DNA from: Bacillota bacterium
GTDB lineage: Bacteria; Bacillota; UBA4882; JAAYXC01
Reading direction: 5' to 3'
Assembly (NCBI GenBank): GCA_012516115.1
Contig: JAAYXC010000076.1
Coordinates: 1 to 47,695, forward strand
Length of the DNA stretch: 47,695 bases
Made by a program: the position numbers and the translations under genes
Part shown: in pieces, positions 9,443-34,628 of the stretch
Layout: every line of letters starts with the position of its first letter
How positions within the stretch are numbered: the stretch's first letter is position 1
Notes under the pieces: model-generated
Told to the model about the DNA's origin: nothing
The model's input: the letters and a program-made list of their open reading frames with translations, nothing else
Database searches by the model: none

Positions 9443-10399
9443 CTATACAACCCTGATGGCGAACTGCGGGCAGAGGGGCACGCAGTAACCGCACCGCAGG
9501 CAGAGATGGGGGTCGATGCTTGCCTTGCCTTCGACCATGCTGATGGCGGCATTGGGACATCCGGCGATACAGGTCCCGCAGCCCTGGCAGAGGGAGGCCG
9601 TGACGAGGACCCGTTTCCCGCCGCCGGCGATGGAAGGCGGGGGGCCGGCCGGAGGCTCGCCGGCGAAGAAGGCCACGTTGTAGTCGACCTCCCCGGGGGC
9701 CACCATCCCGAGGGCGATGGCATGGAACGGCACGGTATCGCGGACGAAGGCGATGGATTCGGCGAAGGAGTCGAGCAGGATCCCTCCGGCCAAAACCTTC
9801 ATCAGGTAGACTCCCTTACCCGCCTCGTAGCTCCGGCGGATGGCACATGCCATCTCGGCCACCGTGCCGCCCAGGATCCCGCGGCCCTCGCGGTTGTAAA
9901 GGGGAAAGACCACCTCGATCTCGGGGCGTTCGGCGGCGGCCATGACCGTCCGCACGTCGTGGGTGGAGATCCCCACCGCGCCGATTACCCCCCGCGCGCG
10001 GTAATCCAGGAGACAGCGGAGGGCCCCCGCCCGCTCGTTAAAGACTTCCGGACCCACGCGGGCCGCATGCAGGTGAAAGATGTCGATGCGGTCCACGGCC
10101 AGCTCGCGGAGGGCTTCCTCTACGGCCGCCTCCATCTCTTCGTAGGTCCTGGCCGCGGACTTGGTGGCGATGACCGGCCGGATGCCGCTCGCGCGAATGG
10201 CCTCCCGGATCGGGGCGTAGGTCCGGTAGGCCTGGGCCGTGTCGACGAAACCGATGCCGGCCCGGAGGGCATGGGCGATGAGAGTGGTGCCCTCGGCCAG
10301 GGGCAGATTTTTCTGGAGGGGGCCCATGGGCAGGGCGCCGAAGCAGAGCTCGGTCACCTCGAGGCCGGTGGGGCCGAGAATGGTGCGCTTGAGGGGCAA
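9443..10399 (-). CDS. aldo/keto reductase with C-terminal 2x[4Fe-4S] ferredoxin domain
   Basis: 318 aa. The AKR-like N-terminus is 'LGPTGLEVTELCFGALPMG...FVDTAQAYRTY'. The C-terminus carries 'CQGCGTCIAGCP' and 'CLRCGYCVPLCP' cluster motifs. Confidence 0.85.
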   Translation of the reverse strand: MPLKRTILGPTGLEVTELCFGALPMGPLQKNLPLAEGTTLIAHALRAGIGFVDTAQAYRTYAPIREAIRASGIRPVIATKSAARTYEEMEAAVEEALRELAVDRIDIFHLHAARVGPEVFNERAGALRCLLDYRARGVIGAVGISTHDVRTVMAAAERPEIEVVFPLYNREGRGILGGTVAEMACAIRRSYEAGKGVYLMKVLAGGILLDSFAESIAFVRDTVPFHAIALGMVAPGEVDYNVAFFAGEPPAGPPPSIAGGGKRVLVTASLCQGCGTCIAGCPNAAISMVEGKASIDPHLCLRCGYCVPLCPQFAIRVV

Positions 10400-10735: not shown

Positions 10736-10890
10736 GGAGGGTGATGGCATACGCGGTGGTGGTAGCCCAAAGTAGCCATGACCTCCTTGTCTGCCGGCAG
10801 GCAGATAAAGGCATCCTTATGTACTTCCCTTCGGTAAGATTTCGTCCAAAGCGTCCGGTCTCCCTTCGGCAAGATAGGGATCGCGTTCGA

Positions 10891-10920
10891 TTGACACGCT
10901 GTGGTCCCTTTTGGTATCAT
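10891..10920 (+). promoter_or_regulatory. sigma-A type promoter (TTGACA - 18 nt - TGgTATCAT) for the pur leader
   Basis: TTGACA at 10891-10896. The extended -10 TGGTATCAT is at 10912-10920. The predicted TSS is ~10927, upstream of the riboswitch. Confidence 0.55.
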
Positions 10921-10964
10921 GAATTCGTGGACGCGTTTGACAAACGAAGAGGAGGCCCCGATGG

Positions 10965-11075
10965 TGGGGTAAGAAAGTGCGCCTAGGGTTCCGCCCGCCA
11001 TGCGGCGGGGCCAGGTCCAAGTGGCGCAGGCGCCGAGACGAGGCGCTACACCCTAGAGGGATAAAAGCCCCGGCG
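10965..11075 (+). promoter_or_regulatory. ykkC-family riboswitch aptamer, probably subtype 2b (PRPP)
   Basis: The ordered conserved blocks are CCUAGGGUUCCG (10982-10993), GGUCC (11013-11017), UACAC (11047-11051) and GGGAUAAAAGCCCCGG (11058-11073). Hairpins CCCGCC/GGCGGG and GCGCC/GGCGC lie between them. UACACCC replaces the guanidine-I UACACGG. It sits directly upstream of a purine de novo operon. Confidence 0.7.
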
Positions 11076-11112
11076 GATAGGTTTCTCTTGGCCTATCCGC
11101 TTTTGTTTTTTT
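11073..11112 (+). terminator. intrinsic terminator (riboswitch expression platform)
   Basis: A 9-bp stem GCGGATAGG / CCTATCCGC (11073-11081 / 11092-11100) is followed by TTTTGTTTTTTT. The 5' arm abuts the aptamer 3' end. Confidence 0.75.
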
Positions 11113-11242
11113 GGTGGAAACGTTCTTTCGGCGCGAGATCCGCGTAATCGCGCTCATGGCCCGTGGTTCGCCGCGTGGGCGCGAAAGCGGTTTACGGATT
11201 TTGGGCACTGCTCGCCGGGCCCGTTTGGTGAGGGGTGGTCTC

Positions 11243-12643
11243 TTGGAGCGCGATATCTTCGCCAACCTCAGTCCGCTGGATCACCGGTATTACGCTGGTA
11301 ACCCCGAGCTCTTCGAGGAACTGGCGGAATACTTGAGCGAAAACGCTTATATCCGTTACCAACTCAAGGTGGAGGCGGCCCTGGCCCGGGCCCTGGCCCG
11401 TCGCGGGCTCTGCGCGCCGGCGATCGCCGAGGAGATCGTGGCCGCCTGCGCCGTGGTCACCCCGGAGGAGGTCTACGTGGAAGAGGCGGTCACCCACCAT
11501 AACGTCCGGGCGCTGGTAAACTGCATCCAGCGGCGGGTGGGCCCGGGCGCCAGGCCCTTCGTTCACCTCACCGCCACTTCCGTCGATATCCTGGACACGG
11601 CCAATGCCCTGCGGCTACGGGCGGTGACCGAGGAGGTCGTCCTCCCCAGGGCGGCCGCGCTGTTGCGTCTCTTGATCGAGTTAGCCCGGCGGGAGAAGGA
11701 GACCCTGCAGATGGGCCGCACCCACGGCCAGCACGCGGTCCCCATCACCTTCGGGTTTGCCCTCGCCCAGTATGTGGCCCGTTTCGGCAATAGGCTCGAG
11801 GCCATCGCCGCCGCGGCCAGGGGCTTGCGCGGCAAGATGTCCGGGGCGGTGGGGGCCTATAACGCCAGTTCGCTTTTCTTCCCCGATCCCGAGGCTTTCG
11901 AGGCCGAAGTCCTATCCGAGCTGGGGCTGGCGCCCGCCGAGATTTCGACCCAGATCGTGCCCCCGGAATACCTGGTGGATTATCTCCACGCGGTGGTCTC
12001 GGCTTTCGGCGTTTTGGCCAACCTGGCCGACGATCTCCGCCACCTGCAGCGGACCGAGATCGGGGAGGTGGCCGAGGCTTTCGCCCCCACCCAGGTGGGC
12101 TCCTCGACCATGCCCCATAAGCGGAACCCGTGGAACTTCGAGCACATCAAGAGCCTCTGGAAGGAATTCGTCCCGCGGATGCTCACCCGTTACCTCGATC
12201 AGATCTCCGAACACCAGCGGGACTTGACCAACTCCGCTTCCGGCCGTTTCGCGCCGGAAATCGTGGTGGGTTTCGTGGCGGCCGTGGAAAGGATGAAGAG
12301 CGTTCTGGCCCGCCTGTACGTGGATCGGGAGCAGATGCGGACGAACTTCGCCGCCAGCGCGGAGACGGTCATCGCCGAACCGCTCTATATCTTGCTCGCT
12401 TACCATGGAGAACCCAAGGCCCACGAGACGGTGCGCCTTTTAACCCTGGAGGCCGAGGAAAAGGGCGTTACCCTTCGCCGGCTTTTAACCGAGCACCCGG
12501 AACGTTTTGGCTTCCTGGCCAAAATGTCCGAGGAGCAGCGGCGGATCCTGGCCGAACCCGAGCGTTACACCGGCCGGGCTGCGGCCAAAACCGAGGAAGT
12601 CTGCGCCCGTTGGGAGCGGCGGTTGGCGGAGATGGGGTTTTAA
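11243..12643 (+). CDS. purB: adenylosuccinate lyase
   Basis: ORF 11111..12643. The TTG at 11243 follows GAGGGGTGG. 'LSPLDHRYY', 'GRTHGQHAVPITFG' and 'GSSTMPHKRNP' (fumarate-lyase signature) are present. The exact start is uncertain, because a GTG at 11228 is also in frame. Confidence 0.88.
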   Translation: MERDIFANLSPLDHRYYAGNPELFEELAEYLSENAYIRYQLKVEAALARALARRGLCAPAIAEEIVAACAVVTPEEVYVEEAVTHHNVRALVNCIQRRVGPGARPFVHLTATSVDILDTANALRLRAVTEEVVLPRAAALLRLLIELARREKETLQMGRTHGQHAVPITFGFALAQYVARFGNRLEAIAAAARGLRGKMSGAVGAYNASSLFFPDPEAFEAEVLSELGLAPAEISTQIVPPEYLVDYLHAVVSAFGVLANLADDLRHLQRTEIGEVAEAFAPTQVGSSTMPHKRNPWNFEHIKSLWKEFVPRMLTRYLDQISEHQRDLTNSASGRFAPEIVVGFVAAVERMKSVLARLYVDREQMRTNFAASAETVIAEPLYILLAYHGEPKAHETVRLLTLEAEEKGVTLRRLLTEHPERFGFLAKMSEEQRRILAEPERYTGRAAAKTEEVCARWERRLAEMGF

Positions 12644-12690: not shown

Positions 12691-14124
12691 ATGTTTCTGG
12701 AGATGGAGGCCGCGTTGGAAGAGGAAATACGGGAAGAGTGCGGAGTCTTCGGGATCTTCGCCGAAGATCCCGGGCTCGAGGTGGCCTACCTTACCTTTCT
12801 TGGGCTGCTCGGCCTGCAACACCGGGGCCAGGAGAGCGCGGGCATCGCCGTGACCGACGGGACGCGGGTGGCCTGCCATAAGAACCTGGGATTGGTTCGG
12901 TCGGCCTTCCGGCCCGAGGACTTGAAGGGTCTGACCGGTTTTGCCGCCGTGGGGCACGTCCGGTATTCCACCACCGGGACGACTTCCCTGGCCAACGCCC
13001 AGCCGCTCGTCGCCCGCTTCTCCCGGGGGACCATTGCCTTGGCCCATAACGGGAACCTGGTCAATGCCGACGCCCTCCTGGTGGATCTCGAGATGGCCGG
13101 GTCGGTCTTTCAGTCCACCTCGGACACGGAGGTCATCCTGAACCTCCTCGCCCATTTCAGCCGGGAACCTTTTCCGGAAGCCCTCCGCCGGGCCGCCGAG
13201 AGGCTTGTGGGTTCGTATTCCCTGGTGATGATGACCCGGGATACTCTCTACGGGCTTAGGGACCCCCACGGGAACCGCCCGCTTTGTCTGGGGCGCCTGG
13301 AAGGTGGGTACGTACTGGCCTCGGAGAGCTCGGCCCTCTCTTCCATCGGCGCCAAGTTAATCCGGGACGTGGCCCCGGGCGAGCTCATCACGGTCGACCG
13401 GGAGGGGTTGCACTCCGAGATCCTCCTCCCTCCGGCCCGGCGCGCCATCTGCGCCATGGAATTCATCTATTTCGCCAGGCCGGATAGTGTCATCGAGGGC
13501 CGTTCGGTACACGAGGTCCGTAAAGAGCTGGGCCGGGAATTGGCGCGGGTCCATCCCGTCGAAGCGGATCTGGTGGTCCCCGTCCCCGATAGCGGGTACT
13601 CCATGGCCGTGGGTTTCGCCGCCGAGGCAGGTCTGCCGCTGGATATAGGGCTCATCGCCAATCGTTATGTGGGCCGGACCTTTATCCAACCCCAGCAGGA
13701 ACTCCGCAAACAGGGGGTCACGATCAAGCTCTCGCCCATCGAGGCCGTCCTCCGTGGTAAACGGGTGGTCATCATCGACGACTCCATCGTGCGGGGCACC
13801 ACCACGAGCATCCTCATCAGGCTCCTGCGGGACGCCGGGGCCAGGGAGGTCCATATGTGCGTGAGCTCGCCTCCCTATACCAACCCCTGCTATTACGGGA
13901 TCGACGTCCCGGCCAAGCGCGAGCTCATCGCCTCCTCCCATACCGTAGAAGAGATCCGGCGTTTCATCAACGCCGATACCCTCCATTATCTCCCCATGGA
14001 GAGCCTTCCGCGGGCCATCGGCCTGCCCCTCGACCACCTCTGTCTGGGGTGTTTCAACGGGGAATACCCCACCGAGATCCCGCGGGAGAACGTGGGAAAA
14101 AATCGTCTGGAAAAGGGGGTTTAA
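12691..14124 (+). CDS. purF: amidophosphoribosyltransferase
   Basis: The ATG at 12691 follows GGAGGGGAG. A propeptide precedes 'CGVFGI' (N-terminal nucleophile Cys). The PRPP-binding 'VVIIDDSIVRGTT' is present. It lies within the longer ORF 12130..14124. Confidence 0.92.
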   Translation: MFLEMEAALEEEIREECGVFGIFAEDPGLEVAYLTFLGLLGLQHRGQESAGIAVTDGTRVACHKNLGLVRSAFRPEDLKGLTGFAAVGHVRYSTTGTTSLANAQPLVARFSRGTIALAHNGNLVNADALLVDLEMAGSVFQSTSDTEVILNLLAHFSREPFPEALRRAAERLVGSYSLVMMTRDTLYGLRDPHGNRPLCLGRLEGGYVLASESSALSSIGAKLIRDVAPGELITVDREGLHSEILLPPARRAICAMEFIYFARPDSVIEGRSVHEVRKELGRELARVHPVEADLVVPVPDSGYSMAVGFAAEAGLPLDIGLIANRYVGRTFIQPQQELRKQGVTIKLSPIEAVLRGKRVVIIDDSIVRGTTTSILIRLLRDAGAREVHMCVSSPPYTNPCYYGIDVPAKRELIASSHTVEEIRRFINADTLHYLPMESLPRAIGLPLDHLCLGCFNGEYPTEIPRENVGKNRLEKGV

Positions 14125-14125
14125 G

Positions 14126-15154
14126 ATGGGCTGGACCTATCGGCAGGCCGGGGTAGACATCGAAGCGGCGACGGCGTTGAAGAAACGCCTCAAAGAGCTG
14201 GTCAAGAGCACCTTCGTCCCCGGGGTCCTGGGCGAGCTGGGCGGTTTCGGCGGACTCTTCGCCGTGCCCTCCGGGTTCCGGGACCCCATCCTGGTGGCCA
14301 GCACCGATGGAGTGGGCACGAAGCTCAAGATCGCCGTCCTGGCCGGGCGCCACGACACGGTGGGCCGGGACCTGGTCAACCACTGCGTCGACGACCTCCT
14401 GGTCCAGGGGGCCCGACCCCTATTCTTTCTCGACTACTTCGCCACCGGGCGGCTCGTCCCGGCGCTGGTGGAGGAAGTCGTGACGGGACTGGCCGTGGCC
14501 TGTCGGGAGGCCGGTTGCGCCCTGATCGGAGGGGAGACGGCGGAGATGCCCGGGATGTACCGCGAGGGGGAGTACGACCTCGCCGGGACGATGGTCGGGA
14601 TCGTCGAGCGGGAGGCCCTCTTGCCCCGGGGGGATGTGGCCGCGGGCGATCTCGTCCTGGGGCTCGCCTCCAACGGCCTCCACACCAACGGTTATTCCCT
14701 GGTGCGCCGGCTCTGTCTGGAGGAGATGGGGATGCGTCTCGACGAGTACGTCCCCGCCTTCGGCCGGACCCTGGGGGAAGAACTTTTGCGGATCCACCGG
14801 AACTACGAACCCCTCGTCCGGCCCCTCCTGGCCGCGGGGCTGGTCAAAGCGCTGGTCCACCTGACCGGCGGCGGGTACCAGGGGAACATCCCGCGCGTCC
14901 TCCCTCCCGGGCTCGGGGTGCGGATCGATCCCTCGGGGTGGCCGGTCCAGCCGATCTTTTCCTTCTTGGCCGCCCGGGGCCGCATCGCCCGGGAGGAAAT
15001 GTTCCGGACCTTCAATATGGGCCTGGGGCTCCTCCTCATCGTGGCGCCCGCCGTGGAGGAGCGGGTCCGGGAACTCCTGGCCGTCCGGGGCGAGGAGGTC
15101 TACCGCGCCGGGCTGGTGGTCGAAGGCGCAGGGGTGGAGATCGCAGGGGAGTGA
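14126..15154 (+). CDS. purM: phosphoribosylformylglycinamidine cyclo-ligase (AIR synthetase)
   Basis: 342 aa. 'YRQAGVDIEAA', 'GGFGGLF' and 'DGVGTKLK' are typical of PurM. Confidence 0.93.
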   Translation: MGWTYRQAGVDIEAATALKKRLKELVKSTFVPGVLGELGGFGGLFAVPSGFRDPILVASTDGVGTKLKIAVLAGRHDTVGRDLVNHCVDDLLVQGARPLFFLDYFATGRLVPALVEEVVTGLAVACREAGCALIGGETAEMPGMYREGEYDLAGTMVGIVEREALLPRGDVAAGDLVLGLASNGLHTNGYSLVRRLCLEEMGMRLDEYVPAFGRTLGEELLRIHRNYEPLVRPLLAAGLVKALVHLTGGGYQGNIPRVLPPGLGVRIDPSGWPVQPIFSFLAARGRIAREEMFRTFNMGLGLLLIVAPAVEERVRELLAVRGEEVYRAGLVVEGAGVEIAGE

Positions 15155-15211: not shown

Positions 15212-15245
15212 CCTTCTCCTGCCCGGAGAGGGACCCGGGTGAGGT
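15212..15245. repeat. GGGGTGAG-type palindromic repeat, copy inside the pur operon (purM-purN spacer)
   Basis: CCTTCTCCTGCCCGGAGAGGGACCCGGGTGAGG. Confidence 0.5.
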
Positions 15246-15253
15246 GGTGGAAA

Positions 15254-15874
15254 GTGGGTTTGCTCCGGGTGGCGGTCTTCGTCTCGGGCAATGGGTCGAA
15301 TCTCCAGGCCTTGCTGGATAACCTCACGGGCATGGTGGAGTTCGTTTTGGTGCTTGCGAACAAACCCGATGCCTATGCGCTCGTCCGGGCCGGGAAGGCC
15401 GGCGTGCCGACGGCGGTGGTCCGTTACGAGGACTACCCGCATCGCGCCGCCTTCACCCGGGCCATCCTCGACCTGGTCACCGAGAAGAAAGTCGATCTTA
15501 TCTGTCTCGCCGGATTCAACCGGATTCTGGATCCGCTCTTGATCGAGGCCTTCCCCCTGCGCATCATGAACACCCATCCGGCCCTGCTCCCGGCCTTCGG
15601 AGGCGAAGGCATGTTCGGTCGCCGCGTCCACGAGGCCGTCCTGGCCTCCGGAGCAAAGATCAGCGGGGCCACGGTCCACTTCGTTACCGCCGAGACCGAT
15701 AGGGGCCCCATCATCCTCCAGGCGGCGGTACCGGTCTTGGACGACGACACCCCGGAGACGCTGGCGGGAAGGGTCCTCGCCGCCGAACACCGCCTCTATC
15801 CCGAGGCGGTGAGGCTCTTTGCCGCCGGAAGACTCAGAGTGGAGGGGAACCGGGTTCGCATCATCCCGGGCTAA
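15254..15874 (+). CDS. purN: phosphoribosylglycinamide formyltransferase
   Basis: ORF 15182..15874. The GTG at 15254 follows GAGGTGGTGGAAA. 'VAVFVSGNGSNLQAL', 'NTHPALLPAFGG' and 'GATVHFV' are present. Confidence 0.88.
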   Translation: MGLLRVAVFVSGNGSNLQALLDNLTGMVEFVLVLANKPDAYALVRAGKAGVPTAVVRYEDYPHRAAFTRAILDLVTEKKVDLICLAGFNRILDPLLIEAFPLRIMNTHPALLPAFGGEGMFGRRVHEAVLASGAKISGATVHFVTAETDRGPIILQAAVPVLDDDTPETLAGRVLAAEHRLYPEAVRLFAAGRLRVEGNRVRIIPG

Positions 15875-15928: not shown

Positions 15929-17482
15929 ATGATCGAGATCCGACGGGCTTTGCTGAGCGTCTCGGATAAACGGGGGCTGGTGGAGTTCGGCCGGGGGCTT
16001 CTCCGTTACGGGGTGGAGCTCGTCTCCACCGGAGGGACCTATAACGTCCTGAAAGAGGCCGGCCTACCGGTAACCTACATCTCCGAGGTGACCGGCTTCC
16101 CCGAGATCCTGGACGGCCGGGTCAAGACCCTCCATCCCGCCATCCATGCCGGTATCCTGGCCCGCCGAGACGACCCCCGGCACCTGGCCCAGCTCGAGGA
16201 GGCCGGGATCAAACCCATCGATCTTGTGGTGGTCAATCTCTATCCCTTCGCCGCCACCGTGGCCAGGCCCGGGGTCACGCCGGCGGAAGCCGTCGAGAAC
16301 ATCGACATCGGGGGACCGAGCCTCATCCGGGCGGCGGCCAAAAACCATGCCGGGGTGGTGGTCATAGTCGATCCCGAGACCTATCCCCTCCTCCTGGCGG
16401 AGATGGAAGCCCACGGGGGGAAGGTCACCTTGGAGTTCGCCCGGGCACGGGCGGTGGAGGCCTTTGCCCATACCGCCGCCTATGATGCGGCCATCCACCG
16501 TTACCTGGCGGGGACCGGGGACCAGGTCTTCCCGGCCCTGTTGGAACTGCGTTTTGAGAAGGTCATGGATCTCCGCTACGGCGAGAACCCCCACCAGCGG
16601 GCGGCCTTTTACCGGGATCCGGGTTTTCGCGGTTTCGGCGTAAGCGAGGCCGAGAAGCTCCAGGGGAAGGAGCTCTCCTTCAACAACATCGGCGATGCCG
16701 ACACGGCCATGCACCTGGCGGCCGAGTTCGACCCGCCGACGGTGGTGGCGGTCAAGCATGCCAACCCTTGCGGAGTCGGGACCGGCCCCGACCTTTTGAC
16801 CGCCTTCCGCAAGGCCTACGAGTCCGATCCCGTCTCCATCTTCGGGGGGATCATCGCCGTCAACCGGGAACTGGACGGCGAGACCGCCCGGGCCATGGCC
16901 GAGTTATTCCTTGAGATCGTCATCGCCCCCTCTTTCAGCGAAGAGGCCCGGAAGATCCTGGCGGCCAAAAAGAACCTCCGCCTCCTTCGGCTTGCCTTCC
17001 CCGCGCCGGGTGACCGACCGGGAGAGGGGTTCGATCTCCGGCGGGTGTCCGGGGGGCTCCTGGTCCAGGACCGGGATCTGGCCGACTATCGGCCGGCGGA
17101 CCTGGTGGTCAAGACCAAAAGGCCGCCGACCGAAGCCGAGCTTCACGACCTGGCCATGGCCTGGAAGGTGGTTAAATACGTAAAATCCAACGCCATCGTC
17201 CTCTGGCGGGACGGCAGGACGGTGGGCATCGGTGCCGGCCAGATGAACCGGGTCGGCGCCGCCAGGATCGCCATCGCCCAGGCGGGGGAGAAGGCCAGGG
17301 GGGCGGTCCTGGCTTCGGATGCCTTCTTTCCCATGCCCGATACGGTGGAGGAAGCGGCCAGGGCCGGGATTACGGCCATCATCCAGCCGGGCGGTTCCAT
17401 CCGGGACGATGAGTCCATCGCCGCCGCCGACAGCTTCGGCCTGGCCATGGTCTTCACCGGGATGAGACATTTTAGGCACTGA
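15929..17482 (+). CDS. purH: bifunctional AICAR transformylase / IMP cyclohydrolase
   Basis: 517 aa. 'ALLSVSDKRGLVEF', 'GRVKTLHPAIHAGIL' and 'QPGGSIRD' are present. Confidence 0.95.
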   Translation: MIEIRRALLSVSDKRGLVEFGRGLLRYGVELVSTGGTYNVLKEAGLPVTYISEVTGFPEILDGRVKTLHPAIHAGILARRDDPRHLAQLEEAGIKPIDLVVVNLYPFAATVARPGVTPAEAVENIDIGGPSLIRAAAKNHAGVVVIVDPETYPLLLAEMEAHGGKVTLEFARARAVEAFAHTAAYDAAIHRYLAGTGDQVFPALLELRFEKVMDLRYGENPHQRAAFYRDPGFRGFGVSEAEKLQGKELSFNNIGDADTAMHLAAEFDPPTVVAVKHANPCGVGTGPDLLTAFRKAYESDPVSIFGGIIAVNRELDGETARAMAELFLEIVIAPSFSEEARKILAAKKNLRLLRLAFPAPGDRPGEGFDLRRVSGGLLVQDRDLADYRPADLVVKTKRPPTEAELHDLAMAWKVVKYVKSNAIVLWRDGRTVGIGAGQMNRVGAARIAIAQAGEKARGAVLASDAFFPMPDTVEEAARAGITAIIQPGGSIRDDESIAAADSFGLAMVFTGMRHFRH

Positions 17483-17493
17483 GGGGAGCTGAG

Positions 17494-17943
17494 ATGTCCG
17501 CGCAAGAGATCTATGACATCAATGAGATCAAAAAGATCTTACCCCATCGTTTCCCCTTCCTGCTCGTCGACCGCATCCTCGAGATCGGGGAGAACCGGTG
17601 TGTGGGGCTCAAGAACTTTACCGCCAACGAACCTTTTTCCCAGAAGTACTTCGGCGGAATCTATCCCATGCAGGGGGTCCTCCAGGGGGAGGCCATGGCC
17701 CAGGTGGCGGCCTTCCTCCTATTGGCCAGGGTCGCCCAGCCCGGGGATCTGGCCTACTTCGCCAGCATCGATCGGGTCCGTTTCCGGCGGCCCGCCTTGC
17801 CCGGAGATCAGCTGCGCATCGAGGTGACGGTGGATAAACTCCGCGCCCGGGCCGGGCGCTTTATCGGTCGTTCCTTCATCGACGGGAAGATCTCCTGCGA
17901 AGCCCGTTTTACCTGTATGATGGCACCAAAAGAAGAGAATTAA
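17494..17943 (+). CDS. FabZ-like hotdog-fold protein with the catalytic His substituted
   Basis: 149 aa. 'ILPHRFPFLLVDRILE' and 'EAMAQ' match FabZ. The active-site box NEPFFxGHFPxxPxMPGVL reads NEPFSQKYFGGIYPMQGVL here (His to Tyr, PG to QG). Confidence 0.8.
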   Translation: MSAQEIYDINEIKKILPHRFPFLLVDRILEIGENRCVGLKNFTANEPFSQKYFGGIYPMQGVLQGEAMAQVAAFLLLARVAQPGDLAYFASIDRVRFRRPALPGDQLRIEVTVDKLRARAGRFIGRSFIDGKISCEARFTCMMAPKEEN

Positions 17944-18000: not shown

Positions 18001-18074
18001 TTGGGTACAAAAAACCAAGAGAAGATCGTTTTAACCGAAAAGGGTCCGCAAAATTGTTTGTGGGAGGGAGAGAA

Positions 18075-18971
18075 GTGCTTCTCGTCCGTTCGGAACTGCC
18101 CGGCCTGCCGGCCCCGCGGCGGGGGAAGGTCCGGGATATCTACGACCTTGGTTCCCAGCTCCTCATCGTCGCCACCGATCGCGTCTCGGCCTTCGACGTG
18201 GTCCTGCCCGATCCCATCCCGGACAAGGGGCGGGTCCTGACCGGCCTCACCGTCCACTGGTTTGCCCGGACGCGGGAGATCGTCGCCAACCACCTGCTAA
18301 CGGCCGATTTCGCGGAGTTCCCGGCGGTCCTGGCCCCCTTCCGGGCGGTGCTGGCCGGCCGGAGCATGCTGGTCCGCAAGGCCCAGGTGCTACCGGTGGA
18401 ATGCGTCGTCCGCGGGTACCTGGCCGGTTCGGCCTGGAAGGAGTACCGGACGAGCGGAAGGGTGGGTGAACACCTCCTCCCGCCGGGGCTGCGGGAGAGT
18501 GAGCGGTTACCGGAGCCCCTCTTTACCCCCACCACCAAGGCCGCCACCGGCCACGACGAACCGCTTACTTTTGCCCAGGTGGAAAGGTTGATCGGCCGGG
18601 AGCTGGCCGCGCGCGTGCGGGACCTTTCTTTAGCCCTCTACCGCTTCGGCGCCGCCCGAACCGAGGAACGGGGGATCGTCCTGGCGGACACCAAGTTCGA
18701 GTTCGGCCTGGTGGACGGGGAACTCCTGGTGGTGGACGAGATCCTGACCCCGGACTCCTCCCGTTTCTGGCCGCTTGACGGCTACGCGCCGGGGGGACCG
18801 CAACCGAGTTTCGACAAACAGTTCATCCGGGACTATCTGGAGCAGAGCGGTTGGGACAAGCGGCCGCCGGCGCCTTCCCTGCCGACGGAGGTCATTGCCG
18901 GCACGGCGGCGCGTTACCGGGAGGCCTACCGAAGGCTGGTGGGCCGGGAACTGGGAGGGGAAGAAGGATGA
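18075..18971 (+). CDS. purC: phosphoribosylaminoimidazole-succinocarboxamide synthase
   Basis: ORF 18054..18971. The GTG at 18075 follows GGGAGGGAGAGAA. 'GKVRDIYD', 'ATDRVSAFDVVL' and 'LADTKFEFG' are present. Confidence 0.9.
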   Translation: MLLVRSELPGLPAPRRGKVRDIYDLGSQLLIVATDRVSAFDVVLPDPIPDKGRVLTGLTVHWFARTREIVANHLLTADFAEFPAVLAPFRAVLAGRSMLVRKAQVLPVECVVRGYLAGSAWKEYRTSGRVGEHLLPPGLRESERLPEPLFTPTTKAATGHDEPLTFAQVERLIGRELAARVRDLSLALYRFGAARTEERGIVLADTKFEFGLVDGELLVVDEILTPDSSRFWPLDGYAPGGPQPSFDKQFIRDYLEQSGWDKRPPAPSLPTEVIAGTAARYREAYRRLVGRELGGEEG

Positions 18972-20251
18972 AGGTTTTGGTCATCGGGAGCGGCGGCCGG
19001 GAACACGCCATCGTCTGGAAACTGGCCCAGAGTCCCTCGGTGCGAAAGATCTACGCCGCGCCCGGCAACCCCGGTATCTGGGACCTGGCCGCGCCGGTGA
19101 CGGTCGATCATAACAACATCGCGGCCCTGGCCGATTTCGCCGCCGCCGAGGGGATCGACCTCACCGTGGTGGGGCCGGAGATCTATTTGGCGCTGGGGTT
19201 GGTCGACGAGTTTGCCCGCCGGGGGCTTTTGGTCTTCGGGCCGACCAAAGCGGCGGCGGTCATCGAAGCGGAGAAAGCCTTCGCCAAGGACTTCATGGCC
19301 AGGCACCACATCCCCACCGCCGACTACGCGGTCTTTTCCGATTACGAGCGGGCCCGTGACCATCTGCGGGCCCACGGCGCACCGGTGGTGGTCAAGGCCA
19401 GCGGTCTGGCTGGAGGGAAGGGCGCTTTTGTCTGCCAGAGTCTAGACCAGGCCGAAGAGGCTCTTGCCGACCTTATGGTCCGGCGCGTCTTCGGCGAGGC
19501 CGGAGAGAAAGTGGTCATCGAAGAGTACCTCACCGGGGAAGAAGCTTCGTTGCTCGTCCTGACCGATGGCGAGAGGGCCTGGCCTTTCCCTTTGGCCCAG
19601 GATCATAAACGTGCCTACGACGGTGACGAAGGCCCGAACACCGGCGGCATGGGCGCCTACGCCCCGGCCGGGGTCCTTCCGCCGGTAGAGATCGACCGGG
19701 TCATGGAGACCATCGTCTATCCCACTTTAAAAGGTTTGGCGGCCGAAGGCCGGCCTTACCGCGGCGTTCTTTATGTGGGGTTGATGATCGCTCCCTCCGG
19801 GCCGAAGGTCGTCGAGTATAACTGTCGCTTCGGCGACCCGGAGGCCCAAGCGGTCTTGCCGCTTCTGGTGACGGACTTCGCCTCCCTCTGCCTGGCGGCG
19901 GCTGCGGGCCGCCGGCCGGCGGATCCCCCGGTCTTCTCCGGGCAAAGCGCGGTCTGCGTGGTCCTGGCTGCCGGCGGCTACCCCGGCGATTACCGGAAAG
20001 GGGACGTCATCCACGGCCTGGACGTAGCCACGCACCTCTCGGAAGTGCTCGTCTTCCACGCCGGTACGGCCCTGCGCGGCGGCGAAGTGGTCACCGCCGG
20101 CGGTCGGGTGCTGAACGTGGTGGGCCTGGGGCCCGAGTTTACCGTGGCGCGCGAGCGTGCCTACGCGGCCGTCTCCCGGATCGAGTTCGCCGGGATGCAT
20201 TACCGGCGGGACATCGCCTGGCGCGAAATGCGACGGCGGATGTTGTCGTAG
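18968..20251 (+). CDS. purD: phosphoribosylamine-glycine ligase
   Basis: The ATG at 18968 overlaps the purC stop (ATGA). 'MKVLVIGSGGREHAIVWKL' and the ATP-grasp body are present. It lies within ORF 18851..20251. Confidence 0.93.
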   Translation: MKVLVIGSGGREHAIVWKLAQSPSVRKIYAAPGNPGIWDLAAPVTVDHNNIAALADFAAAEGIDLTVVGPEIYLALGLVDEFARRGLLVFGPTKAAAVIEAEKAFAKDFMARHHIPTADYAVFSDYERARDHLRAHGAPVVVKASGLAGGKGAFVCQSLDQAEEALADLMVRRVFGEAGEKVVIEEYLTGEEASLLVLTDGERAWPFPLAQDHKRAYDGDEGPNTGGMGAYAPAGVLPPVEIDRVMETIVYPTLKGLAAEGRPYRGVLYVGLMIAPSGPKVVEYNCRFGDPEAQAVLPLLVTDFASLCLAAAAGRRPADPPVFSGQSAVCVVLAAGGYPGDYRKGDVIHGLDVATHLSEVLVFHAGTALRGGEVVTAGGRVLNVVGLGPEFTVARERAYAAVSRIEFAGMHYRRDIAWREMRRRMLS

Positions 20252-21556: not shown

Positions 21557-22504
21557 TCAGTTGAAGAGCGCGCTGACGGAGATGTTCTGGTGGATCCGGC
21601 GGATGGTATCCCCCAGCAGGGGGGCGACGGAAAGGATCTTGAGGTTGGCCGGACGCCGCTCGGGCGGAATGGCGATGGTGTTTGTGACCACGATCTCCTT
21701 GATGGCCGGGTGGTTGAGCCGTTCCAGGGCCGGCGGTGAGAAGACGCCGTGAGTGGCCAGGATGTGGATCTCCGGCAGCGCCCCCCGGGACAGAAGGGCC
21801 TCGATCACCTGTTCCACGCTCCCCCCGGTATCGATGATGTCCTCGATGATGATGGGCTGCATACCGTCTACTTCGCCGATGACGAAGGTCGTCTGGGCCA
21901 CGTTGTGGGCCGGACGGCGTTTGTACATGACCCCCAGAGGAAGATCGAGCATGGTGGCGAGTTTCTCGGCCTTCTTTACGATCCCCGCGTCGGGGGCGAT
22001 GATCACGCCGTTGGCGATACCCTTGCCCCTGATATACTGGGCCAGCATCGGCAAAGCGGTCATATGGTCCACGGGGATGTTGAAGAATCCTTGGATGGCC
22101 GGGGCGTGGAGGTCCATGGTCAAGACGCGATCCGCGCCAACGGTGGTGATGATGTCCGCGACCATGCGGGCGGTGATGGGCTCACGGGGAGCGGTCTTCT
22201 TTTCCTGGCGGGCATAACCATAATAGGGGATCACCGCGGTGATGCGGCCGGCCGAGGCGCGCTTTAAGGCATCGATCATGATCAGGAGCTCGACCAGGTT
22301 TTCGTTGACCGGTGCCGAAAGGGGCTGGAGCACGAAGACGTCGATTCCCCGCACGCTTTCTTCGTAGCGGACGTATATTTCCCCACTGGCGAAACGGGAT
22401 ATATGCACGCCGCCCAGGCTTATCCCAAGAAAGTCCGCCACTTCCTGCCCCAGGGCAGGGTTGGCCGTCCCGGTAAAGAGTTTCATCTGGCCGTTATGAG
22501 GCAT
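21557..22504 (-). CDS. prs: ribose-phosphate pyrophosphokinase (PRPP synthetase)
   Basis: 315 aa. 'KLFTGTANPALGQEVA', 'YYGYARQEKK' and 'IIEDIIDTGGS' are present. A second in-frame ATG at 22486 is also possible as the start. Confidence 0.93.
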   Translation of the reverse strand: MPHNGQMKLFTGTANPALGQEVADFLGISLGGVHISRFASGEIYVRYEESVRGIDVFVLQPLSAPVNENLVELLIMIDALKRASAGRITAVIPYYGYARQEKKTAPREPITARMVADIITTVGADRVLTMDLHAPAIQGFFNIPVDHMTALPMLAQYIRGKGIANGVIIAPDAGIVKKAEKLATMLDLPLGVMYKRRPAHNVAQTTFVIGEVDGMQPIIIEDIIDTGGSVEQVIEALLSRGALPEIHILATHGVFSPPALERLNHPAIKEIVVTNTIAIPPERRPANLKILSVAPLLGDTIRRIHQNISVSALFN

Positions 22505-33707: not shown

Positions 33708-34628
33708 ATGCTGCGCCATCTCCCGCATTTTAAAGATTGGTCGGCCGGAGAGCTCCTCGAGCTTTTGGAAAAGGCCCTCTACCTTAAAGAGCACCTGGCG
33801 GATTACGCCGGGATCCTCAAGGGCAAGACCATGGCGATGATCTTTCAGAAGACCTCCACCAGGACGCGGCTCTCCTTCGAGGCCGGGATGACCAGACTGG
33901 GTGGCCATGCGGTCTATATGGACTGGCGGGCCACCAACCTCGTCCTGGCCGAGATCAAGGACGAGATCCGCTACATCGCGGGTAACGCGGATCTGGTGAT
34001 GGCCCGTCTCCTCCACCATAAAGACCTGCTGGAAATGATCGCCTACGCCACGGTACCGGTGATCAACGGGTGCGACGATCGTTACCACCCCTGCCAGGCC
34101 TTCTGCGATCTTCTCACCCTCCGCGAGAAACTGGGTCGCCTCCAGGGGATCAAACTCGTCTACGTGGGCGTCTGGAACAACGTGCTAAACTCCCTGGTCG
34201 ACCTCTGCCACAAGATCGGGGTTTACCTTGTGGCCATCGCGCCCATCGTCAACGAGCCCTCTTGGGATCCGGAACTTTTGGCCGCCGCCGAGCGTTCCGG
34301 GTTCTTCCGGCGGGCGGAAGACCTCCGAACCGAGGTCCGCGACGCCGACGCGGTTTACACGGACTCCTGGGTCGACATGGAATTTTTCCTGGATCCGGCC
34401 TACGAGGCGGAAAAGAAGCGCCGCCTGGAGCTGATGTTGCCCTATCAGCTCAACGCGGCCAATCTGGCCGGTTCCAGGGCGCTCATCATGCACGATATGC
34501 CCATCCACCCCGGTTATGAAATCGACCGGGCGATGATCGAGGACGAGCGGTCGATCATCTTCCCGCAATCCTGGAACCGGATGCACGGCCAGAACGCCAT
34601 CATCCTCAGGTTGCTGGGACTGCTCTGA
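33708..34628 (+). CDS. aspartate/ornithine carbamoyltransferase-family protein with non-canonical second-substrate motifs
   Basis: The ATG at 33708 follows GGAAGGAGAAA, inside ORF 33534..34628. The carbamoyl-phosphate motifs 'STRTR' and 'HPCQ' are present. The OTC 'DxWxSMG' reads 'DSWVDME' and 'HCLP' reads 'HDMP'. Confidence 0.75.
   Translation: MLRHLPHFKDWSAGELLELLEKALYLKEHLADYAGILKGKTMAMIFQKTSTRTRLSFEAGMTRLGGHAVYMDWRATNLVLAEIKDEIRYIAGNADLVMARLLHHKDLLEMIAYATVPVINGCDDRYHPCQAFCDLLTLREKLGRLQGIKLVYVGVWNNVLNSLVDLCHKIGVYLVAIAPIVNEPSWDPELLAAAERSGFFRRAEDLRTEVRDADAVYTDSWVDMEFFLDPAYEAEKKRRLELMLPYQLNAANLAGSRALIMHDMPIHPGYEIDRAMIEDERSIIFPQSWNRMHGQNAIILRLLGLL

Follow-up and report, generated by a model that had tools for sequence, protein, structure and literature searches.

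A probable singlet PRPP riboswitch ahead of the purine biosynthesis operon of an uncultured Bacillota bacterium

The RNA considered here is a leader at positions 10891-11112 of a 47,695-nt contig (JAAYXC010000076.1; the whole stretch is called the window below) from an uncultured Bacillota bacterium. Its closest described systems are the ykkC-type riboswitches: guanidine-I (subtype 1), the guanosine tetraphosphate (ppGpp) riboswitch (subtype 2a), and the phosphoribosyl pyrophosphate (PRPP) riboswitch (subtype 2b). A single position, A46 in guanidine-I, sorts guanidine-related gene contexts from the remaining ykkC RNAs (PMC6031431), and in subtype-2 RNAs the 5′ and 3′ tails are conserved and form helix P0 with each other (PMC5912903, PMC6031431). 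The PRPP class was described in 2018 from 257 examples, all in Firmicutes, including 130 singlets (PMC5912903). Within it, G96 is kept in >97% of aptamers, and the G96A change shifts specificity ~40,000-fold (PMC6031431). The purB RNA of Heliobacterium modesticaldum is an ON switch, as seen from PRPP-dependent read-through with a T50 of 40-90 μM and from a lacZ reporter in purF-deleted Bacillus subtilis (PMC5912903).

Here, we report that the leader in the window is in all likelihood an ordinary, previously unlisted member of the PRPP riboswitch class, and that the evidence supports an earlier note, which had proposed this as probable from the letters of the sequence. Its features make it very probably a singlet PRPP riboswitch (ykkC subtype 2b) working as a transcriptional ON switch. 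The region lies within a gene-poor gap with purB on its downstream side. We analyzed it with a covariance model, R1, for which 39 sequences were taken from the published 2b alignment and joined by the two validated constructs; its structure is the published one with P0 added. Residues are numbered as in Thermoanaerobacter mathranii (NC_014209) of the published 2b alignment; this numbering agrees with all residues that the structure paper names, and was mapped onto the window. The aptamer and its parts were assigned as follows.

10972-11085, + strand: predicted PRPP riboswitch aptamer (ykkC subtype 2b), from RF00442, model R1, the published consensus and covariation
10973-10976 / 11082-11085, + strand: helix P0, GAAA with UUUC
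10978-10983 / 11023-11028, + strand: helix P1
C10991,C10992 / G11014,G11015, + strand: helix P1a
10994-10999 / 11004-11009, + strand: helix P1b
11029-11034 / 11042-11047, + strand: helix P2
C11051,C11052 / G11075,G11076, + strand: lower helix P3
11058-11060 / 11068-11070, + strand: upper helix P3
10982-10993, 11014-11018, 11047-11051 and 11058-11073, + strand: the ordered conserved blocks CCUAGGGUUCCG, GGUCC, UACAC and GGGAUAAAAGCCCCGG, respectively
G11021 and U11022, + strand: equivalents of G48 and C49, the pyrimidine being the subtype-2 marker where guanidine-I has A (A46)
11048-11052, + strand: ACACC box (A74 C75 A76 C77 C78), in which C75 (C11049) pairs with G96, and C77 and C78 contact PRPP
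G11072, + strand: equivalent of G96, which discriminates PRPP (G) from ppGpp (not G) aptamers
11077-11085, + strand: 3′ tail AUAGGUUUC, with the equivalents of A101, A103, G104 and G105 and the P0 3′ strand UUUC

All four ordered ykkC blocks listed in the earlier note are present, and they lie within a full-length ykkC-type covariance-model match. In the T. mathranii mapping, A5 and G6 correspond to A10976 and G10977, A101 to A11077, A103 to A11079, and G104 and G105 to G11080 and G11081. The PRPP-contacting residues A5, G6, G48, C77, C78, G96, A101, G104, and G105 are all kept; at position 49, U stands in for C, as the Y of the published consensus permits. The P0 tails are present as AGAAAG at 10972-10977 and CGGAUAGGUUUC at 11074-11085. 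The window also has the fold that subtype 2b requires, namely P1, P1a, P1b, P2, and P3 with the blocks CUAGGGUUCC, GnCCRAG, ACACC, and GGGAYAAAAGCCC, and it fits nearly the whole published 2b consensus, nGAAAGYGYRYCU-A-GGGUUCCR...GnCCRAGYGRYRCR...YACACCR..nAGGG-AYAAAAGCCCAGR-nGGR-YAGGUUUCRCUY. The assignment to ykkC subtype 2 is thus borne out by the marker pyrimidine, the ACACC box and the P0 tails. At the published position that discriminates subtypes 2a and 2b, G11072 is on the PRPP side. The contrast that the earlier note drew between ACACGG in guanidine-I and ACACCC in the window agrees with the Rfam consensus and with the guanidine-I RNAs of relatives.

When the whole window was searched, the Rfam family RF00442 (Guanidine-I) matched 10972-11077 over model positions 1-107, with 67.5 bits against a gathering threshold of 63 (E 5.9e-10). 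No other ykkC-type Rfam family matched 10850-11250 even at E<=10, and the remaining matches at that threshold over the same region (CRISPR-DR47, HOTTIP_1, and PhotoRC-I) were set aside as noise. Since the Rfam copy used appears to hold no 2b-specific model, the Guanidine-I label is merely the nearest one available. On R1, the window RNA scored 92.6 bits (E 5.5e-26), every one of the 23 modelled pairs being canonical, and position 96 is an invariant G across the 39-sequence sample of the published 2b alignment. In the covariance-model check that the earlier note had proposed, a guanidine-I call was formally obtained, the RF00442 score exceeding its threshold, whereas the PRPP model strongly matched the RNA.

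To place these scores, we searched 40 relatives with RF00442 and then fetched the secondary matches, which gave three clearly separate sequence classes. In place of a formal 2a model, the ppGpp-type contrast consists of those RNAs of relatives in which position 96 is A or U.

Class A (guanidine-I): GAGAG, ACACGG and GGGAGAU; Rfam 73-91 bits; R1 36-48 bits; before small multidrug resistance (SMR; Gdx-type) exporters
Class B (the class of the window): R1 79-97 bits; before purB (~24 cases), purF, purE, purS or glyA
Class C (A/U at position 96): tail GAAGGAGUCUC; lower Rfam scores; R1 51-68 bits; before an ABC ATPase gene or GNAT acetyltransferases

Judged by its sequence, the window RNA belongs squarely to class B, and its R1 score sits mid-range for that class. 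Since true guanidine-I RNAs score as class A does on the two models, the Rfam guanidine-I match is no refutation. The two same-family relatives (L017 and L024) have near-identical cores upstream of purB, and an R1 match of at least 79 bits was found in 41 of the 58 genomes of the class in GTDB. The leader stands upstream of de novo purine biosynthesis genes, the context expected in Firmicutes (codA being the other known one), and the host, a metagenome-assembled genome (MAG) of Bacillota, is of the phylum in which the PRPP class was described. G96, the ligand contacts, the R1 score and the association with purine genes all agree with PRPP as the probable ligand, as had been suggested.

Covariation gave further support for the fold. 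Across 34 class-B RNAs, in an alignment that was fitted to the model and is biased towards it, 98.5% of cells are paired and 10 pairs show double changes, and no shuffle and no slid register approaches the observed pairing values. P0, which is not part of guanidine-I, is 99.3% paired in these RNAs; its pair 3-108 is A-U in 19, G-C in 11, and G-U in 4. Four of the nearest named relatives, the Bacillota/Limnochordales MAGs L035, L037, L038, and L039 (PurB 60-64% identical), had no R1 match upstream of purB within 1.5 kb (L035, L037, and L039) or 371 nt (L038), so the riboswitch is not universal among them.

We then considered how the aptamer might act on transcription. A 9-bp-stem, U-rich terminator had been placed directly after the aptamer; it is present and overlaps the aptamer.

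11072-11112, + strand: intrinsic terminator, with stem 11072-11083 / 11090-11101, loop UCUCUU and U-tract 11101-11112

The stem has nine Watson-Crick pairs (11073-11081 / 11092-11100), or 12 pairs when G-U is included, and is followed by UUUUGUUUUUUU at 11101-11112; the hairpin energy is -19.4 kcal/mol. Its 5′ arm, 11072-11083, is the same RNA as aptamer positions 96-107, and covers G96, A101, G104, and G105 together with lower P3 on its 3′ side; of the four bases in the P0 3′ strand, the first two also belong to it and the last two fall in the terminator loop. Since this arm is itself aptamer sequence, the RNA can adopt either the ligand-bound fold or the terminator, but not both. The same terminator arrangement, with an overlap at aptamer positions 97-105, occurs in all singlet class-B relatives, and the stem itself covaries, A101-U becoming G101-C in L019, L023, and L026. 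When 10972-11113 was folded with ViennaRNA under constraints, the terminator conformer had -61.6 kcal/mol and the aptamer conformer -45.4 kcal/mol. With 16 kcal/mol in favour of the terminator conformer on secondary structure alone, the default state would be OFF, and a ligand-stabilised tertiary structure would consequently have to win during transcription. Such ligand-stabilised read-through over a default OFF state is the published behaviour of the PRPP class (PMC5912903).

In the mechanism that we propose, G11072-U11083 would pair with 11090-11101 when PRPP is low, forming the terminator, and polymerase would stop at the U-tract (11101-11112). When PRPP is high, it would be bound together with metal ions by A10976, G10977, G11021, U11022, C11051, C11052, G11072, A11077, G11080, and G11081. 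Binding would stabilise lower P3 (C11051,C11052 / G11075,G11076) and P0 (10973-10976 / 11082-11085), which would sequester the 5′ arm and the loop of the terminator and permit read-through into purB-purF-purM-purN-purH-fabZ-like-purC-purD. Since PRPP is the substrate of PurF, encoded by the second gene of the operon, this would be feed-forward activation of purine synthesis. The identity of the ligand and the actual anti-termination are what we infer from the RNA's sequence; the position of the terminator 5′ arm within the aptamer, and the upkeep of this architecture in relatives, are consistent with the PRPP ON switch by anti-termination that had been envisaged.

Upstream of the aptamer, a promoter and a short 5′ leader were recognized.

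9443-10399, - strand: aldo/keto-reductase/ferredoxin gene, upstream neighbour of the leader
10891-10896, + strand: -35 hexamer TTGACA, from the sequence and a promoter scan
10912-10920, + strand: extended -10 TGgTATCAT (T10912 G10913 g, TATCAT 10915-10920), separated from the -35 by an 18-nt spacer
10955-10970, + strand: small GC hairpin GCCCC/GGGGU with loop GAUGGU (RNAfold), stopping 2 nt short of the aptamer

The near-consensus promoter described in the earlier note (TTGACA, 18 nt, TGgTATCAT) is where it had been located; in a consensus scan its hexamers match at 11 of 12 positions, with the extended -10 TG in addition, and over 800 nt the scan picked out 2 promoter-like sites where shuffles predict 0.2. 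From the spacing, transcription would start near 10927, ~7 nt past the extended -10, which leaves 44 nt before the aptamer, containing the one small hairpin. Overlapping this hairpin, a consensus Shine-Dalgarno sequence (AGGAGG, 10950-10955) is followed after 5 nt by a three-codon open reading frame (ORF), ATG GTG GGG TAA (10961-10972), whose stop codon overlaps the first aptamer base. Both same-family relatives have a GC hairpin at the same leader site without a Shine-Dalgarno sequence or mini-ORF, so these two features of the window are probably due to chance. The hairpin itself is possibly a stabiliser of the 5′ end. The possibility that the 44-nt leader holds a guanine aptamer, as a ghost or in tandem, was also considered and rejected, as there was no purine-riboswitch match in the region or the genome, and the leader is unlike the guanine-aptamer 3′ halves of the tandem relatives.

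Downstream, the genes and the stretch before them were assigned as follows; purF, purM, purN, purH, purC, and purD were each identified by an NCBIfam equivalog model and placed by their start codon.

11113-11242, + strand: 130-nt spacer between terminator and purB, without a recognisable element
11243-12643, + strand: purB (adenylosuccinate lyase; NCBIfam TIGR00928), the first gene under the predicted control
12691-14124, + strand: purF
14126-15154, + strand: purM
~15239-15874, + strand: purN
15929-17482, + strand: purH
17494-17943, + strand: fabZ-like gene (NF000582, 3-hydroxyacyl-ACP dehydratase FabZ, 138 bits against a cut-off of 113)
~18054-18971, + strand: purC
18968-20251, + strand: purD
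21557-22504, - strand: prs, ~10.4 kb away

The NCBIfam assignments confirmed the order of the operon that had been read as purBFMNH-CD some 130 nt after the terminator, with the fabZ-like gene between purH and purC, and prs is indeed at the distance of about 10 kb given for it. The tight spacing suggests that purB to purD are co-transcribed. The fabZ-like gene begins 11 nt past purH, ahead of purC, and is presumably co-regulated by the PRPP riboswitch. The start of purB is TTG 11243, 130 nt past the U-run and preceded by the Shine-Dalgarno-like GGUGAGGGG; the resulting M-E-R-D-I-F aligns with the N-termini of relatives' PurB. A longer PurB from ATG 11156 or TTG 11111 was rejected, because relatives start with M-E/D-R-D and because of the Shine-Dalgarno-like sequence before TTG 11243. 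A second regulatory RNA in the 130-nt spacer was likewise discarded (fold z-score -1.1; only noise in Rfam at E<=10).

The uncultured Bacillota bacterium is represented by a MAG of 2.6 Mb with a completeness of 90.9%, split into 472 contigs; among named sequences, those closest to its PurB belong to Bacillota and Limnochordales MAGs. Its purE and purL genes are on other contigs. The R1 search found only one PRPP-type element in the genome; two candidate second copies, a 23.7-bit RF00442 match on contig C103 inside an apparent coding sequence and a 15.6-bit R1 match on C195, were dismissed as chance. In this 91%-complete assembly no purine riboswitch and no ZTP riboswitch (RF01750) was found, and the element may therefore be the only known RNA sensor on the pathway.

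Several observations weigh against a PRPP riboswitch. Rfam labels the RNA Guanidine-I. Position 49 is U, where C is commoner, U being present in 5 of the 39 sampled published sequences and in all class-B relatives. Position 95 is C, not A/G, although C also occurs in published members and in L024, and the 79-98 pair is a C11053-C11074 mismatch where most relatives have G79-C98. In the minimum free energy structure of the whole leader (RNAfold), CUAGGGU (10983-10989) pairs with ACCCUAG (11050-11056), in competition with the aptamer. Finally, most relatives have a much shorter spacer before purB than the 130 nt seen here. The CUAGGGU/ACCCUAG pairing is peculiar to the window sequence; it may add to the OFF state, or it may mean nothing. 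That U49, C95, and the C79-C98 mismatch, taken with the family-specific 5′ hairpin and its Shine-Dalgarno sequence and mini-ORF next to P0, give the switch an altered ligand preference, or add to PRPP sensing a further input linked to translation, seems to us very improbable.

The same three departures from the majority consensus, all near the pocket, could also be read as a subtype-2 variant retuned to another phosphorylated ligand, or as subtype 2c (nucleoside diphosphates), since the specificity of the ykkC scaffold shifts with single substitutions (PMC6031431). However, every one of these deviations is also seen in published 2b members or in relatives whose RNA is associated with purine genes, the gene context is canonical for 2b, and the R1 score is mid-range for the class, and we consider either reading highly unlikely.

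A ppGpp riboswitch (subtype 2a), which would switch the operon on during the stringent response, has to be weighed because 2a and 2b agree in nearly all of their consensus, down to the subtype-2 pyrimidine and the ACACC box, and because the wild-type PRPP aptamer also binds ppGpp weakly (dissociation constant 91 μM; PMC6031431). However, ppGpp aptamers have A, C, U, or nothing where the window has G96 (G11072), and G96 outcompetes the guanine of the ligand for C75 (PMC6031431). The relatives' RNAs with A/U at 96 differ in their tail (GAAGGAGUCUC), precede ABC transporter or GNAT genes, and score 51-68 bits on R1 against the 92.6 bits of the window. Moreover, purine biosynthesis genes have no association with 2a, and a purine operon is found here, not branched-chain amino acid, glutamate synthase, natA, or ABC transporter genes. 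We give ppGpp only a very small chance of being the ligand.

It could further be argued that the leader is decaying or constitutive, the aptamer no longer switching and the terminator merely attenuating transcription. The C-C mismatch in lower P3 and the competing CUAGGGU/ACCCUAG pairing would fit this, but no helix and no ligand-contact residue is damaged, the score is one usual for class B, and the two same-family relatives, like 41 of the 58 GTDB class genomes, retain the element, which makes decay a very doubtful explanation. Least likely of all, with next to no chance, is the guanidine-I riboswitch of the Rfam label, which has in its favour a full-length RF00442 match above the gathering threshold (67.5 > 63 bits) but is contradicted by U11022 in place of the defining A46, by ACACCC in place of ACACGG, by conserved 5′ GAAAG and 3′ YAGGUUUC tails that are foreign to guanidine-I, by purB downstream with no guanidine-related gene following (the guanidine-I RNAs of relatives precede SMR exporters), by published work in which subtype-2 RNAs do not bind guanidine, and by the true members in relatives, with their 73-91 bits on Rfam and only 36-48 on R1.

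The survey of relatives also yielded observations on other members of the ykkC family. Eight RNAs from low-GC genera of the same class, L020, L021, L022, L025, L029, and L030 (before purE) and L050 and L051 (before purS), have the published tandem guanine-PRPP arrangement; in them the long terminator extends back into the P3 GCCC strand, while the family of the window has the singlet form. L010 (G007:C25:43775-43879, minus strand) is a PRPP-type RNA of 90.4 bits on R1 upstream of glyA (serine hydroxymethyltransferase), not of a pur gene, a position that ties PRPP sensing to one-carbon supply. L016 (G006:C35, ~33840-33958, minus strand) is a class-B-like RNA before purB with 67.9 bits on R1 that has lost both P0 strands, with 5′ UUAUCGUG in place of GAAAGUG and 3′ CGGACAGUCUUCUGUCCGCCG in place of CGGAUAGGUUUC, and with a terminator directly after; this variant may be degenerating, or may work by a different mechanism. 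Six subtype-2 RNAs with A at 96 and the tail GAAGGAGUCUC were L047, L053, L054, L049, L052, and L055 (in G005, G029, G021, G023, G039, and G017), several of which precede GNAT genes (Acetyltransf_3/RimJ-like), outside the published gene associations of ppGpp riboswitches. L056 (G027:C99:6481-6782, minus strand) is a guanidine-I aptamer before an SMR exporter that is apparently split by ~110 nt in the P2 loop; its 5′ half runs from P1 to the start of P2 and its 3′ half from the end of P2 to P3, and the insert is flanked by a short inverted repeat (GUUGCAUUCAA / UUGAAUGCAAC).

The main value of identifying a PRPP riboswitch in the window is for annotation, since Rfam-based pipelines would label this element, and its many relatives in the class, guanidine-I, a label that would wrongly imply guanidine control of purine synthesis. 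If the identification is true, seven purine genes and the embedded fabZ-like gene would be under PRPP feed-forward activation in an organism known from a MAG only. The case adds nothing new on how riboswitches work.

Set beside the known systems, the window shares with guanidine-I (RF00442, subtype 1), the sole matching Rfam family, the P1-P1a-P1b-P2-P3 fold and most blocks, but differs in the pocket (A46 to U, ACACGG to ACACCC), in its additional P0-forming tails, in gene context, and in predicted ligand. With the ppGpp riboswitch (subtype 2a; Sherlock et al. 2018 PNAS, PMC6003355) it has nearly the same consensus and the same anti-termination logic; it is set apart by G96, by the 2b-type 3′ tail, and by purine genes in place of branched-chain amino acid, glutamate synthase, or natA genes. 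The PRPP aptamer of T. mathranii (PDB 6CK5; Knappenberger, Reiss and Strobel 2018, PMC6031431) maps onto the window one to one in numbering, and its residues A5, G6, G48, A74-C78, G96, A101, A103, G104, and G105 and its P0 strands G2-A5 / U106-C109 are all in the window. The differences are C49 to U, G95 to C, and U79-A98 to C-C, and the T. mathranii element stands in a tandem guanine-PRPP arrangement, whereas the window has no guanine aptamer.

The H. modesticaldum purB singlet (Sherlock et al. 2018, eLife 7:e33908, PMC5912903) is, like the window RNA, a singlet with purB first and the same conserved blocks. The window departs from it in U49, C95, and the C79-C98 mismatch, in helices P1b and P2 that are rich in GC, in the additional hairpin of its 44-nt leader, and in the 130 nt that separate the terminator from purB. 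In both RNAs, in that of the window by prediction, an intrinsic terminator competes with the 3′ part of the aptamer; its 5′ arm starts at 96/97 in the window, so that only lower P3 and P0 would be sequestered, whereas in H. modesticaldum it reaches the upper-P3 GCCC strand. The tail CGGAUAGGUU is common to the two and belongs to a stretch of 23 nt (from AAAAGCCC) with two differing positions, reading AAAAGCCCAGGCGGAUAGGUUCC in H. modesticaldum and AAAAGCCCCGGCGGAUAGGUUUC in the window.

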